From Eledone cirrhosa (taxonomy: Eukaryota), in contig OZ024743.1 of assembly GCA_964016885.1 (NCBI GenBank), positions 300,762,001 to 300,826,000 on the forward strand: a DNA stretch of 64,000 nt, written 5' to 3'. The notes beneath the pieces were generated by a model. That model made no database searches. It had not been told where the DNA came from and was given only the letters and a program-made list of their open reading frames with translations. Of this stretch, positions 9,014 to 59,175 are shown piece after piece. Position numbers and translations under genes: made by a program. Position 1 is the stretch's first letter; every line of letters begins with the position of its first letter.

Positions 9014-12000
9014 ACCGCATACGTAATAAATTCATTACAACACTTAATCTGTAATGTTATAGCATAATTTCACACATAAATCTATGTAAGCATAGTGGTT
9101 CATTTTTGTAAGATTCACGTCATCAAATCCTTTCTCTGATATATACAGAATTGTACAGATGTTACGAGGCCGTTCTTCCATTAAACCGTTCTTCTAACAT
9201 ATGCATGCACAATCAATGAACATAGTACTTATATTTTTACAGTAGAATAATCAATGTTTACATCCCAGCAATTTATTCTATTGCTTTTGAGACTCTCTAA
9301 AGATATTTTATTGTTATTCTCTGACTCGAGGGATTTGTAGTGTTTTCTTTGCAACCTTTGAAGATAATGGTTCGTCCATTAGAAGTTAGATTTAGCTTGA
9401 AGAATTGTCATGTAAAATTAATATATAGTATCCGATCGGTTTTGCTATTTTACTTGGAAACAGATGCATTGGACCACAGAGTAAACAGATTAGATGCTCT
9501 GTGCCAACTATTTTCACAGATTCAAATTATGCCTTGGACAGACAGTAAATAATGAGAAAGTAGTATAATAGGATTTATTAATACAATTATCCACGATTAG
9601 AGCATGTAGAAAAGTCTTGTGCCATGTGCATATATAAAATGTAACAAGTCCTGTGTTTAAAGTTTCGCTTTCTACAAGTTAACAATGATAACATAAAACC
9701 TGGTGTAATTACTGGCAATCAAATTTACTATGAATTCTTCTTGCCCGACGAATTGTTCGTTCTGAATAGTTACTATGAAGTCACGGCATTTATATTGTGA
9801 TGGTTACTGCTAAAATATGATACAAAGAGATAAAGTGTTATTTCATTTGATGTGAATAACACCAGAGCAACTATATTACTAACAGAAATCGGTTATCTGT
9901 ATGAGTGAAATCGGATAGATGTTATGTTTAATGATACTTCATGTCATACAATTCTGTATACTATATGTTTGGATTTGTTTATTTTTTGATTTTGATTAAA
10001 TATACAATTTGTTGTCCATCGGCAAATGTAATGCTTTCATTCAAAATATTACGATTCATAGGAAAATAAATATTGATTGACATTTTAATAATATGCGAAG
10101 TGCTTTGACGTGTGTGTAATTTGTAATTGATGTACATGTTAACGTAGCATTATACGAAGAATGAAATACATAATTTCCGCGCATCTATTAATGATGCTTA
10201 GCGTAGAATATAGCGAATGATTGAGAAATCTTATGTTACATCTTATTAATTTGAAGACACAAAATGATAATATAAACACGTTTTGTGAAGCTGAAGTAAA
10301 TACTTATATAAGCGGCTCATTTCTCCTGTTGATACAAAAGGCTATAGCTATTATATGACGTAGCAGAGAAAGGAAGCAGAATGTGTAATGTTATGATAAT
10401 TTGATATTTCCCTGCCATGTGTTTATATGTTCGAACTAATCCAAGTAGTCCTTAAATAAAAAAAATTGTTATTGTAAATTAAGCTTGATTATTTTCTTTA
10501 TGGAGATTACCAATGTAAAATTGGTCTATAATAATCAGAAAAGGTAGAGAAGCCATTAAAAGTGGAGATAAGAAAACAAAATAGAAATACGTAGTATCAT
10601 CGGAATAAACATTAGGTCGAGCAAAAAACATAATCTATTGCAGTAATATTGAATAAATGAAGATTTAGAAAGTTTCAACAAATAAAAATGATTAACAAAT
10701 TCATGACATTGAATGCAAAAGAGAATCAACATTTTGATATAATTTAAAGCTTGTCGATTATATATTACTTGACAGGGTGGGGCTTCTTTATATCCTATGC
10801 TATTTGCCAACGTTAAATGATTTACAACAATGAAATAGTGTCTCTCTATAGAGCAGAACGAAGCAAACTGACCAAATTTCATTTGCAGTTCGGTATCAGA
10901 CTTGGGGTAATTCATGTCACACAATATTATTATTATGATACTTCAAACGAAATACTTGTCATAAAAATACCGAAATATGTGTTTCAATGGAAAACAAAAT
11001 AAAAACGATAATAATAAAAAGAATAAATAGATAAACAAAAAAAGAGAGATACAGTGAATTCCAAATAATATGTATAGCAGAAAATTTCACGCGATATATA
11101 ATAATTAGCTAATGCCGTTGTTCTGTCATATATTCAATAAGGACGTATGAAAGGCGCATCGATAACGACGCAATGTCAATGGCTACGTAAATTTAGATCA
11201 ATAATAGAATAATCTATATCTATAGCCGCTCACCTTCTGCTCTACAATAAGCTGCTTTTTTTCTCTGGGAAAATATATTCAACGAGTATTTACGTATGAA
11301 TATATATTTTGTATGAGACAAGCACAGAGCAAATATATACAAACACATACATGCACACGCAAACATATTCACACATGCTTATGTATATATATATATATAT
11401 ATATATATATATATATATATATATATATATATATATATATATATATATGGGAGGAGGTTATAGTTCACTTGAAGCATTGTGTAATGAGGTATTAACGTTA
11501 GAATCTGTGTAATAAGGCCAAGACAATGCAGATATGGACATAGAAAAAAGAATGCAATAGTGAGAGATATTGATGAGAATTCGTCTTTCACCTTGAATTT
11601 ATTTAAATGTCCTTAATTTTCGAGATAACTTCGTCGGAGCTACTGACATGTCCGGGGAAAGGTGGAGAGTAGAGGCTTGAGGACCTGGGAGAGAAGCCAG
11701 GAAATTTTGTATAGGGGTCCTTCTATGCTAGAGACGATGGGTCTTATATGCGTCTTAGTGCTATTCTTGGGGTCTTGATGAGGTGGTAGAAAGTGGGCAG
11801 TCTGCTATTTCTAGTGGTGTAGTTGAGTTTAATTTTATTCGGGAGTTGTCTTCTCCTACAGATATCGAACCAAATGGAGTTGGTCTGCTTTTCGATTTGG
11901 GCTGCAGTCATGTCCGGGATCACTGTGTACAGTTCACTGTCGCTTAGGTGTTCGAAGGCTAGGTTATTGTATGTGGCTTGAGAGATGACGCAGAACTCTT

Positions 12001-12029
12001 TACCTTTGTCGGATGGTAAGTAAATAAGT

Positions 12030-13324
12030 TCCCCGGACATGTCAGTAGCTCCGACGAGGTTATACGTAGATTACACCAAATCCAGCCAGAACAACTTAAA
12101 CTTAATAAATACGCTTTTAGCCTCGACGTTGTCTCCCTCTACACTACAGTCCCCGCTCACCCAGCTGTCGATTTATTGACGGACTGCGTGGTCGCAGAGA
12201 ACATCCACTGCTACGGCCTCCACCCGACGGACATACACCAACTTTTGTCCTTCACAGTAGACAACACGTACTTCACCTTCCACCACCACACATACAGACA
12301 GACAACAGGATTACCCATGGGATCCAGCCTATCGGGCCTGCTGGCCATCACTTACATGAACCAGCTAGAATGCCGAGCCCTCGACACCTGCCATTCCCAT
12401 GCCTTCTTCACCCGATATGTAGATGACATACTCATCCTTACATCATCCCGTGAAGAGGCAGATAAAATATACACAACATTCTCCAGCATGGACGCCAGTA
12501 TAAAGTTCAGCATAGAACACCCCGATGACCGCGGATCCCTATCCCTGCTGGACTTCCAACTCAGGGTAACAGAGGAAGGCAACATCCACACCTGCTTCTA
12601 TAAAAAATCCGCCAGCAGGGACCTGTTCGTACATTTCAGATCGGCCCTCCCACTCGGTGCCAAGTTCGGATACATAAAGAACGAACTGGCACGTATCAAG
12701 AACAAATGCACCGACGCCAGAGACCGAGACACACACACCACACATTTCCTGGAAGTACTCAAACTGAACGGATACACGACATCCACCACAAACCGTGCCA
12801 GAAAGAACAGAGGACACCACACCCGAGGCACTAACACTTGCTTCCTGAAGCTCCCACACTTCAGTGAAGAAACAACAACAGCCATCCGCAGAGCCATCAG
12901 ACGAGAAGGTCTGGATATTCAACTGGCCCATTCGGGTCCTTCTTTGCGTGGACGGCTAGCTAAGAGACACTCCACCAGACATGACAACTGCTGCAGACTA
13001 GCCAACTGCCCCATCAACGACACAGACCTATGCCACCAGGCTTACGTAGTTTACAGACTAGAGTGTGACAAATGCAACAACTTCTACGTAGGTAGCACCA
13101 CCAGACCACTCCACATAAGAATAAAAGAACACCTCAATACTAACGCTTCCTCATTTAAGAAACACCTAGTTAAATGCAAAAACACTGATAAAAACATAAC
13201 AGTTAGGATAGAAACTAAAGAAAGAAACCTCGGCAATCTTAGAATCAAGGAAGCACTCATTATAGATAGAATACATCCACCAATCAATAATAGACTAGAG
13301 CTCAACACCCAATTTATAACCTGA
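12030..13324 (+). CDS. PLE reverse transcriptase core plus GIY-YIG endonuclease (5'-truncated, open)
   Basis: SLDVVSLYTTVP, QTTGLPMGSSLS, RYVDD, LSLLD, VVYRLECDKCNNFYVGST, RIKEH, KEAL, INNRLE. Confidence 0.92.
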
Positions 13325-57249: not shown

Positions 57250-57620
57250 ATACACTGCGGATACGAGTGTGTGTTTGTGTTTTGTATATGAGTCAGAATG
57301 TTTCTGCGTGTGTAAAAATTGTAATTTGCGATATTCGTATTTTATAAAATCATATGCATATATATATATATATATATATATATATATATATATATATATA
57401 TGTGTGTGTGTAAATCATAAATATATGTAAATTATATATATATATATATATGTATATATATATATATATATATATATATATATATATATATATATATATT
57501 TGTGTGTGTATGTATATGACTTTATAAATTACAAATATCGCAAATTACAATTTCTACACGCGCAGATACATTCTGATTCATATACAAAACACAAACAAAC
57601 ACTCGTATACGCAGTATATA
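57250..57620. repeat. ~110-bp inverted arms around a (TA)n spacer
   Basis: 57252-57360 is the reverse complement of 57508-57617. Confidence 0.8.
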
Positions 57621-58438
57621 TATATATATATATATATATATATATATATATATATATATATATATATATATACATATATATATTTATATATATATATATA
57701 AATATATATATATATATTTATAACATATATATACGTATATATATATATATATATATATATATATATATATATATATATATACATATATATATATATATAC
57801 ATATATATATATATATATATATATATATATATATATATATATATGTATATATATATACATATATATACATATATATATATATATATACATATATATATAT
57901 ATATATATATATATATCTATATATGTATATATATATATATATATATATATATATATATATATATAAATATATATATATATATATATTTATATATATATAT
58001 ATATTTATATATATATATATATTTATATATATATATATATAAATATATATATATATATATTTATATATATATATATATAAATATATATATATATTTACAT
58101 TCATATATAAATATATATATATATATATTTATATATATATATATAAATATATATATATATATATTTATATATATATATATATATATAAATATATATATAT
58201 ATATATATTTATATATATATATATATAAATATATATATATATTTATATATATAAATATATATATATATATATTTATATATATATATATAAACATATATAT
58301 ATATATATATGTATATATATATATATATATATTTATATATATATATATATATATATATATATATATAATATATATATATAATATAATATATAATATATAT
58401 ATATATATATATATATAATATATATATATATATATATA
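57615..58438. repeat. Long compound (TA)n tract; similar tracts at 53975-54175 and 54640-55090
   Basis: Visible low-complexity sequence. Confidence 0.95.
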
Positions 58439-59175
58439 AATGGAATAGAATGAAACGAAATTTAATTTCTCACTCTCAGGTCGGCACTTACTTAAATGTA
58501 AGTATGTATGTATACGTACATACATATATGTATACAGACGTACAGTAGCATGTATATATATACATACAGGCACACATATATATATGCACGTATCAGTTTA
58601 CCGAACATTTATTATAATGCTCGGTTTGTTCATTTGTAATATATATATGTGTGTCTGTATATATATATATATATACATGCTACTGTACGTCTAATTACAT
58701 ATATGTATGTACGTATACATACATACTTACATTTAAGTAAGTGCCGTACTAAGAGTGAGAAATGAAATTTCGTTTCATTCCATTCCATTTATCGTTTTCG
58801 GTGCGCCTGTCCGACTGAACTCACTCGATATGCAAATTAGGCTGCTCCGCCGTTAATTTTCATAAGGAAAGTATATACTTTCGGACGTTCAACCATCTGG
58901 CAGAAAGGTATACGGTGCTGACGATAGCTAATAAGCTTGAAACTAGTACATCATTCCTGTGTCAGTGTTGAACAAAAAGGTGACGTGGTTGCCTAAACAC
59001 TGTACGGCGTAATTCAGGCTGTTTGTTTGTTTACAAACGAACAAACCGAGCATTATAATAAATGTTCGGTAAACGGATACGTGCATATATATATGTGTGC
59101 ATGTATGTATATATATACATGCTACTGTACGTCTGTATACATATATGTATGTACGTATACATACATACTTACATT
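58438..59175 (+). mobile_element. Family E HHR element with inverted partial copy (58438-58640)
   Basis: Reverse complement of the 6.7-7.7 kb repeat; HHR 58914-58952 ggtg-CTGACGA-tagctaataagctt-GAAACTAGTA^catc. Confidence 0.85.
58828..58877 (+). promoter_or_regulatory. Candidate octamer plus TATA promoter upstream of HHR
   Basis: ATATGCAAATTAG (octamer 58830-58837), AAAGTATATA (TATATA 58872-58877), HHR from 58914. Confidence 0.45.

Follow-up and report, generated by a model that had tools for sequence, protein, structure and literature searches.

Penelope-like elements (PLEs) often end in an inverted copy of themselves and often sit in microsatellites, and how the inverted arm forms and why such sites are chosen are both listed as open in the available part of Craig et al. 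2021 (PMC8557442), where an inverted 5'-truncated PLE copy with a one-sided tail of 30-40 bp is described. A stretch of 64,000 nt from Eledone cirrhosa (assembly GCA_964016885.1, contig OZ024743.1, forward-strand positions 300,762,001 to 300,826,000; hereafter the window, within which all positions are given) is a dense natural sample for this question, as it contains repeated PLE units in which two arms are joined head-to-head with their 3' ends pointing outward into (TA)n. The microhomology at the ends of these units and the coupling of their arm boundaries could help to separate twin priming, in which two target ends prime on one RNA, from fold-back of a single cDNA and from copying of two templates. 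Our preferred reading, to which we give a probability of roughly 0.55, is that these PLEs and their non-coding derivatives inserted into (TA)n by twin priming at two family-fixed RNA sites, probably often on one RNA. Microhomology, unit counts, orientation and end tests are all drawn from this single 64-kb window.

Two-armed units and their orientation

Nine two-armed loci had been listed in an initial annotation of the window, with coordinates and flanking (TA)n that proved accurate to a few bases (loci are named below by their listed start, and numbered 1-9 in Table 1). Flanks are weak in two cases: the left end of 48510 is 10 nt off a perfect run, and the right end at 59175 is beside a perfect run of only 9 nt. 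Every one of the nine is a PLE or a PLE-like derivative, and its two opposed arms stop at (TA)n or close to it. An internal inverted repeat, as in PLE pseudo-long terminal repeats (pLTRs) and inverted 5'-truncated copies, is present in 8/9: 27 bp (100% identity) inside 1469-2170, 440 bp (96.8%) inside 5331-6690, 152 bp (94%) plus a 35-bp piece inside 11448-13853, 471 bp (86%) inside 17797-21152, 1133 bp (99.5%) inside 23935-28072, 105 bp (100%) inside 34109-35667, 148 bp (88.5%) inside 48510-49585 and 147 bp (98%) inside 58438-59175. Self-comparison gives no internal inverted repeat in 47301-47675, because its arms are non-overlapping parts of the 34109 family, the left arm matching 34206-34401 and the right arm the tail at 34112-34165 only. 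Thus the description of two opposed arms ending in (TA)n applies to all nine loci, but an inverted repeat is missing at 47301 and is just 27 bp at 1469.

Self-comparison adds ten two-armed units (Table 1), and nine complete units lack a detected second arm (starting at 6722, 17667, 32163, 35698, 36005, 36885, 45250, 49736 and 60900). The two-armed share of complete units, 19/28, is only a rough ratio, because boundaries were set partly by eye, the hairpins at 32637 and 55844 carry no PLE marker, and non-overlapping arms like those of 47301 would escape detection. A unit at 62703 that exits the window end is excluded from the 28, and inverted repeats at 57255-57614 and 60121-61264, for which orientation could not be set, are excluded from all counts. 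The suggestion that palindromes are the routine product agrees with the 19/28 two-armed units but was overstated, as nine units look single-armed and some two-armed units share little or no sequence between their arms.

Among the listed loci, the outward direction of the 3' ends is based on ORF (open reading frame) homology or a hammerhead motif in 8/9, the exception being 5331-6690. Orientation can be assigned in 14 of all 19 two-armed units, ten via ORF homology and four via hammerhead cores; 4955, 5331, 32637, 52776 and 55844 were left out. A check of whether the arrangement is non-random, as had been proposed, found 14/14 units head-to-head (P=6e-5 against a coin toss).

Identity of the elements

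A reverse transcriptase (RT) with a C-terminal GIY-YIG endonuclease (EN) in one ORF, which marks EN+ PLEs, is found at 12020-13321 (Pfam RVT_1, 4e-14; GIY-YIG, 1.3e-4), and profile matches at locus 23935 span RT and EN. Pfam GIY-YIG matches are also found in 26896-27414 and 19268-19663. Among named relatives, a protein of Octopus bimaculoides matches the 12062-13321 protein best (63% identity). A profile from 28 homologues of the 26087-26938 protein matches loci 11448, 17797, 23935 and 34109, plus PLE remnants at 46322-47113 and 50576-51010, while loci 1469, 5331, 47301 and 58438 have ORF fragments only or none.

Locus 23935 carries ADKTS (DKT for DKG) and a CxCx5C linker; GIY and YIG have no cysteine pair between them, and the conserved E is preceded by CxxC. 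In these motifs, and in its length of ~3 kb and insertion into (TA)n, it resembles the Hydra clade PLEs as described in the available part of PMC8557442. The placement is by motifs rather than by an RT tree with named references, and the hammerhead motif of this locus has an insert of ~85 nt in stem II. DK[TS] is found in 24/28 homologues of the 26087-26938 protein and an RWK-like motif in 17/28, the latter region being beyond the 5' truncation of locus 23935. Judging from their sequences, loci 17797, 34109 and 48510 and the 46322 ORF, which also carries CxCx5C, are related to this Hydra-type locus. Locus 11448 has DKG and the cysteine pair, and thus belongs to another clade. An identity with Naiad or Chlamys, which have an N-terminal GIY-YIG, was rejected, as EN is C-terminal in both 12020-13321 and locus 23935. 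Bacterial and archaeal genome contigs were searched for related loci with their flanks, and 0/64 pattern matches is a relative.

The hairpin units could be mistaken for miniature inverted-repeat transposable elements (MITEs) or foldback DNA transposons. However, symmetric terminal inverted repeats reaching both ends are not seen, and the units have a one-sided overhang of 39-122 nt. A MITE origin is rejected for the 2208, 37777 and 60297 family because these carry hammerhead cores; 32637 and 55844 remain candidates. As PLE or PLE-like ends touch about half of the TA tracts in the window (see below), these elements may also be a major source both of short palindromes and of false MITE calls in the genome.

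Hammerhead motifs

A motif scan found 11 hammerhead candidates with a score of at least 8, against 0-1 in shuffles, located in 23935, 34109, 58438 and unlisted units. Weaker motifs are present in 11448 and 17797, and the scan found none for 5331 (full core) or 48510. In 5331-6690 a partial motif is visible by eye only, its 593-nt unit is without a full core, and its orientation and PLE identity were left unassigned. An Rfam scan matched no hammerhead model, only low-complexity microRNA matches below the gathering score. When six candidates were folded by minimum free energy, one had z=-2.2 and the others were not significant; the ribozyme calls are therefore by motif pattern only.

A hammerhead motif of the Hydra-type element is found at 27911-28014 (+) and 24136-24239 (-), with a stem II of ~85 nt that includes an internal hairpin. 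A hammerhead-like motif at 2063-2092 (+) has U3/A8 replacing C3/G8; this core variant, and pairs of hammerheads on opposite strands, are reported in the part of PMC4209133 available. Two retrozyme-like tandem arrays, 36005-36765 (-) with 325-nt units and 6722-7683 (-) with ~445-nt units, carry hammerhead motifs and have 3' ends in (TA)n and no inverted arm.

(TA)n as the insertion target

The window is AT-rich, with 172 (TA)n runs in 75 tracts, and PLE or PLE-like ends touch 39 of these 75 tracts. The proposal that (TA)n is the target is upheld by the position of located ORF-bearing PLE ends, 15/18 of which are within 10 nt of a TA tract against 2.5% expected for random bases, a partly circular count, as the edge of the TA tract helped to place the tail ends and the 5' ends. 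Tail-less ends were defined by alignment to the other arm, and mostly reach the first base of a TA run. Two elements, with ends at 47046 and 37749, contribute no 3' end to the 18, as theirs were not located. The three exceptions are the two ends of 28739-29293 and the 5' end at 49736, the last of which abuts (TG)n. As a control, 0/10 ends of a dispersed repeat that we take to be SINE-like (short interspersed nuclear element) are within 10 nt of a TA tract. Copies of this repeat are at 485-572, 15025-15418, 28445-28567, 36768-36884 and 59762-59935, one of them in tandem, and their ends avoid (TA)n.

A pre-existing (TA)n target is favoured, since the 5'-truncated ends at 47046 and 37749 also abut TA. 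Writing of (TA)n by the RT itself, in the manner of telomerase, is disfavoured by the same 5'-truncated ends and by the length of the touched tracts, which are not significantly longer than others (median 52 vs 37.5 nt, P=0.27). In such a target any duplication of the target site would be masked. (TA)n targets have already been stated for Naiad and Hydra PLEs (PMC8557442, as far as available). Nor is the preference unique to PLEs in the window, because a non-PLE insert (33214-33818) is flanked by TA and a Tx1-like LINE (long interspersed nuclear element) ends 25 nt from a tract. The former has (TA)n on both sides and a weak C2H2 zinc-finger match on the minus strand. The latter, at 39267-44720 (+), is Tx1/L1-like with ORF1, RT and zf-RVT, its ORF2 being broken by stops.

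Two family-fixed ends

In every listed locus one arm extends further than the other by a one-sided tail; across the units of the window, tails are 39-163 nt long. The tail-less arm is the shorter in 5/9 (5331, 17797, 23935, 34109, 48510) and the longer in 4/9 (1469, 11448, 47301, 58438). The initial annotation had the shorter arm stopping at TA-like sequence; of the ends quoted there, this applies to 28072 and 35667 but not to 47301 and 6690, where the stop is that of the longer arm. The TA-like stop belongs to the tail-less end and not to the shorter arm.

The ends recur across copies: 2168 and 52764 are the same base, as are 60738 and 60900; 6722, 17775 and 58438 share a site, as do 34110 and 47673; 35665 and 47302 agree within 5 nt, and 49583 and 56500 within ~2 nt. 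Either of the two sites is used by single-armed copies. The exception is the left arm of 56423, which stops 40 nt short of its family site. Thus stop points are not random or chosen freely by microhomology, as first supposed, but fixed within families and reused by copies. From the predicted hammerhead cut to the proximal site beyond it, the distance is 43-76 nt in six families, 121 nt at locus 11448 and 229 nt at locus 58438.

Microhomology was measured as the bases common to a perfect TA run and the element continuation known from the other arm or monomer, at 21 ends (each site of a family taken once, but both 35665 and 47302 included). The values are 4, 2, 6, 3, 2, 0, 3, 6, 3, 5 and 0 nt in listed loci and 1, 2, 4, 4, 4, 5, 2, 5, 0 and 0 nt in unlisted units, the alignment being imperfect for the 4955 and 55844 ends. 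The mean of 2.90 nt compares with 0.98 nt for a random breakpoint and phase (P<=2.5e-6) and 1.71 nt if the better phase is always taken (P=0.0007). For the 11 listed ends the mean is 3.09, the expected values being 0.90 with random phase (P ~2e-5) and 1.57 with best phase (P=0.0017); the 10 unlisted ends alone average 2.70 (P=0.002 and 0.063, respectively). Without the four ends quoted in the initial annotation, P is 0.00034 for random phase and 0.044 for best phase; with the lowest value per family among the first 15 ends, it is 0.00034 and 0.013. Distal sites of tandem units, and not the tail-less ends alone, have TA microhomology (3, 4, 6 nt). The excess of TA microhomology is real but modest.

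Junctions between arms

At locus 11448, 11660-12028 is a minus-strand upstream segment of the RT corresponding to residues 42-175 of homologue P0030, and the forward arm runs from residue 165. The arms duplicate 35 nt, and the inverted segment meets the inverted pLTR at a shared TTAT. Apparently one cDNA was extended for ~190 nt from the tail end before it jumped to within 35 nt of the stop of the other, although a later inversion is an alternative origin. The arms of 47301 abut with a gap of ~30 nt, and between those of 1469 there is an overlap of 27-31 nt. In 58438 the distal monomer is the closer match of the left arm (98.9% identity vs 94.6% for the adjacent one), and the tail of that arm is just 90.7% identical to the adjacent monomer; fold-back of the neighbouring copy is thus unlikely. 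Loci 1469, 11448, 47301 and 58438 are not simple fold-backs, because part of the tail-less arm has no counterpart in the tailed arm, and the tail in turn is missing from, or diverged in, the tail-less one. The arms of 34109 are 100% identical to each other, yet 94.9% to the 47301 copy, which suggests a single event.

Other units are hairpins. Tight centres are seen in six, with loops of 0, 0, 7, 13, 14 and 22 nt, and two further hairpins are looser; at 56441 both arms start at one and the same mid-element base. Arm starts are within ~20 nt of each other in ~7/18 units (P ~5e-6 under a rough independence null, lognormal, with hand-entered arm lengths and 28739 omitted). Such matched starts fit either fold-back or two cDNAs that reached the end of one truncated RNA. 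Loci 17797, 23935, 34109 and 48510 do not discriminate among models. An inverted upstream segment abutting a forward segment, as in L1, is seen at 11448 and 47301, and another pattern at 17797, 23935 and 34109. The idea that the two arms are copied from separate templates as a rule is not supported by these data, as arm boundaries are coupled (35-nt overlap at 11448, ~30-nt gap at 47301, ~7/18 matched starts).

Origin of the two arms

Under twin priming, the GIY-YIG nuclease would cut both strands inside a (TA)n tract, for which the in vitro precedent is another PLE. One 3' end would prime at the distal site and give the tailed arm, and the other would prime 39-163 nt upstream and give the tail-less arm, matching the two observed classes of ends. 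The self-complementary TA 3' end would likely pair with a short UA-rich motif, leaving the ~3 nt of microhomology that is enriched at the ends. Both cDNAs would then stop and be joined head-to-head, and their stop points would decide the product: abutting arms, overlapping arms, or a hairpin where the same RNA end is reached or fold-back occurs. Extension from a single end would give a single-armed copy. The proposal that both ends of the break prime fits the structures seen and the in vitro result in the available part of PMC11167929, and four loci are not simple fold-backs; the priming itself, like the cutting, the pairing and the number of templates, we infer from the identity and orientation of the elements and the anatomy of their ends and junctions. 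A wider version, in which twin priming is the default route for (TA)n-targeting PLEs of several clades, a PLE dimer taking the self-complementary TA ends of its own cut as two primers that anneal to UA motifs, at two programmed positions of a single RNA, is tentative. If true, this rule would cover the inverted pLTR, the one-sided tail and the microsatellite bias together.

Several observations weigh against twin priming at fixed sites. The microhomology signal under the strict null drops without the quoted ends (P=0.044 for all ends; for the listed loci alone P=0.19, or 0.03 with random phase), and microhomology is 0 at 4/21 ends, including 13852 and 49583. The Poseidon protein PAc of Anolis starts at RNA sites non-homologous to the cut DNA (PMC11167929, as far as available), which opposes the pairing step. 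The outer ends of 28739-29293 are without TA, and the arms of 60297-60738 are 89.7% alike while each is 92.9% alike to a third copy. An overlap as long as the 1.1 kb at 23935 would call for strand displacement, two RNAs or a tandem RNA; the 23935 tail was tested for an ORF N-terminus, which would support tandem RNA, and the profile match is not significant. Zero- and short-loop hairpins are, moreover, what self-priming (PMC3846280, available part) predicts.

This last point leads to the strongest competitor, a single priming event followed by fold-back: the first cDNA (or else an antisense template) serves as its own primer, synthesis returns toward the 3' end, and an internal TA motif is joined to the other (TA)n end by microhomology-mediated end joining. 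It accounts directly for the one-sided tail and the TA microhomology, and for the six tight hairpin centres, of which two are zero-loop and one is mid-element (56441). Self-priming has been proposed for the palindromes at PLE head-to-head junctions (PMC3846280), and inverted duplications at L1 breaks arise from self-annealing (10.1101/2024.12.14.628481), in the parts of both sources available. However, each arm at 1469, 11448, 47301 and 58438 holds sequence that is absent or diverged in the other, and single-armed copies (52764, 60900) end at the tail-less site, which thus needs no fold-back. As a general account fold-back appears rather unlikely, although it may well act in the hairpin class. 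The version in the initial annotation, with both ends priming on separate RNAs and stopping independently, makes the long duplicated arms (1133, 471 and 440 bp) easiest to explain and suits locus 8, whose arms differ beyond 148 bp; in the available parts of the respective sources, the predicted PAc dimer could bind two RNAs (PMC11167929) and L1 break ends can be extended on different mRNAs (10.1101/2024.12.14.628481). Independent templates do not predict coinciding starts in ~7/18 units (P ~5e-6, rough null) or boundaries within 35 nt at 11448 and ~30 nt at 47301, and we regard this version as improbable.

The arms could also be independent insertions into the same TA tract or an older copy, after which slippage of the flanking (TA)n against an internal TATA would have removed the tails. 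TA tracts shared by neighbouring units are indeed seen (6692-6721, 35666-35697, 55832-55843), slippage would also yield microhomology and reuse of the best TA motif, and old arms are merely 72-89% alike. Nevertheless, the head-to-head junctions inspected are without (TA)n, bar a short element-internal run beside 58639, orientation is uniform in 14/14 units, young arms resemble each other more than they do other copies, and the overhang is on one side only in each aligned unit, all of which makes serial insertion very improbable. Least credible is that the palindromes are assembly or library artefacts, i.e. fold-back chimeras at (TA)n. Tandem and inverted PLE structures are known to trouble assemblies (PMC8557442, available part) and two loci have arms that are 99.5-100% identical, but for most arms identity is 72-98%, the stops are at sites specific to the element and used again elsewhere, and host flanks are not included.

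Further features of the window

At 57129-57747, inverted arms of ~100 nt have (TA)n outside and between them and carry no PLE marker. An older inverted pair at 60121-61264 surrounds the hammerhead units of 60297-61068, possibly as nested insertions. At the window end, 62703-64000 (-) has a PLE-like 3' end adjoining (TA)n and a classic hammerhead core at 62831, and continues past the window.

Table 1. Arms and units, with positions in the window.
Feature	Positions	Strand	Remarks
Locus 1, short inverted arm	1470..1561	-	62-65 nt tail; family of PLE at 49736-52764
Locus 1, long arm (3' untranslated region, UTR)	1560..2168	+	Hammerhead-like motif (U3/A8 core) at 2063; no tail; TA microhomology of 4 nt
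Unlisted hairpin unit	2208..2652		7-nt loop; both arms with hammerhead motif; right arm with 96-nt tail; left end with 4-nt microhomology
Unlisted zero-loop hairpin unit	4955..5187		Internal deletion in right arm; hammerhead-like motif by eye only
Locus 2	5332..6691		440-nt inverted arm meets, at 5771, 1.55 copies of 593-nt non-coding tandem unit; microhomology 2 (left) and 6 (right)
Locus 3, inverted pLTR	11449..11639	-	42-45 nt tail; fused to ORF interior via shared 4-nt TTAT
Locus 3, inverted upstream RT segment	11625..12028	-	DKG motif to RT2; ends in 35-nt duplicate of 12029-12063
Locus 3, long arm	12029..13852	+	RT + GIY-YIG ORF (to 13324) and 3' UTR; microhomology 0 at tail-less end; minimal hammerhead motif at 13703
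Locus 4, long arm	17796..20698	-	Broken Hydra-type PLE ORF; 99-103 nt tail
Locus 4, short arm	20699..21151	+	Tail-less; microhomology 3
Locus 5, long arm	23937..26939	-	Hydra-type PLE of almost full length, with one stop ~26084; 139-145 nt tail; long insert in stem II of hammerhead motif
Locus 5, short arm (GIY-YIG + 3' UTR)	26940..28068	+	99.5% identical to long arm; tail-less; microhomology 6
Unlisted head-to-head unit	28739..29293		GIY-YIG remnant; outer ends not touching (TA)n, a counter-example
Unlisted hairpin unit	32637..33088		101-nt overhang, between TA tracts; no PLE marker found
Locus 6, long arm	34110..35560	-	Hydra-type endonuclease C-terminus; hammerhead motif; 83-91 nt tail
Locus 6, short arm	35561..35665	+	Begins at hammerhead motif; 100% identical; microhomology 3
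Unlisted 1-kb hairpin unit	37777..38825		Minimal hammerhead core in both arms; 39-nt tail; microhomology 5
Single-armed Hydra-type PLE	45250-47046	-	5' end abuts (TA)n
Locus 7, longer arm	47303..47617	-	Tail-less; microhomology 5; locus 6 family
Locus 7, shorter arm	47618..47673	+	Tail sequence only; no overlap with other arm
Locus 8	48511..49583		Left arm with 81-84 nt tail; right arm from Hydra-type ORF end (~49225) to tail-less end, microhomology 0
Single-armed decayed PLE	49736..52764	+	RT, CxxxxCxxC linker, GIY-YIG; terminates at same base as locus 1 long arm
Unlisted small degenerate hairpin unit	52776..52975		Between TA runs; 80-nt overhang
Unlisted head-to-head unit	55092..55831		GIY-YIG remnant on minus strand; 58-nt tail; microhomology 4
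Unlisted hairpin unit	55844..56409		13-nt loop; no PLE marker found
Unlisted 78-nt zero-loop hairpin	56423..56500		Locus 8 family; arms share one mid-element start base
Locus 9, short arm	58439..58639	-	54-57 nt tail; 98% to distal monomer
Locus 9, long arm	58640..59177	+	Tandem non-coding unit; hammerhead motif at 58918; tail-less end, microhomology 2
Unlisted hairpin unit	60297..60738		94-nt tail; single-armed hammerhead copy at 60900-61068 ends at same site

Comparison with known systems

The layout holds up, extends beyond the nine listed loci and, like the target, largely matches the published PLE signature, and the novelty is a modest mechanistic hint. That PLE insertions often carry an inverted partial pLTR, as the initial annotation took to be established, is indeed described in the available part of PMC8557442, and in that of Arkhipova et al. 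2013 (PMC3846280) head-to-head is the most frequent PLE arrangement, with self-priming proposed. With EN+ PLEs as presented in these two partly available sources, the elements of the window share RT plus C-terminal GIY-YIG, an inverted 5'-truncated copy at the 5' end, the head-to-head arrangement, the one-sided tail, candidate hammerhead motifs in the pLTR, partial tandems and (TA)n targets. They differ in the length of the tails (39-163 nt vs the 30-40 bp reported in PMC8557442) and in that the tail is on the shorter arm in 4/9 loci. The available parts of PMC8557442 and PMC3846280 contain no description for PLEs of TA microhomology at ends or of L1-like 5' inversion. A literature search found no paper that applies twin priming to PLEs, which is weak evidence of absence as few subscription papers were covered.

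The likeness to retrozymes is one of motifs and tandem layout. In common with non-LTR retrozymes and dual opposite-strand minimal hammerheads, as far as these are described in the available parts of 10.64898/2026.07.22.740005 and PMC4209133, there are non-coding tandem units of 325-593 nt, two of them with hammerhead motifs. The dual hammerheads of PMC4209133 are further matched by motif pairs 100-700 bp apart on opposite strands and by the U3-A8 core.

The closest biochemical parallel is PAc, which in the available part of Frangieh et al. 2024 (PMC11167929) cuts and extends both strands in vitro, is a predicted dimer and uses two non-homologous internal starts that bound the tail. These two start sites match the two fixed classes of ends in the window, and further points in common are their position downstream of the hammerhead, the cutting and extension of both strands proposed here and an AT-rich target. 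However, PAc initiates without homology to the cut DNA, whereas the ends described here have an excess of TA microhomology, and the available part of that study does not tie two-strand extension to the inverted arm. Twin priming in L1 (10.1101/2024.08.27.596794, available part) is alike in that two target ends would prime one RNA, and in the resulting 5' inversion, which comes with a small gap or duplication. The "twin priming & 3' switching" pattern described there is matched by locus 11448, and the simple pattern by 47301. Unlike L1, the PLEs of the window have no poly(A), both primers would act at fixed internal sites, the 3' end is often duplicated, and ~2/3 of the units are two-armed.

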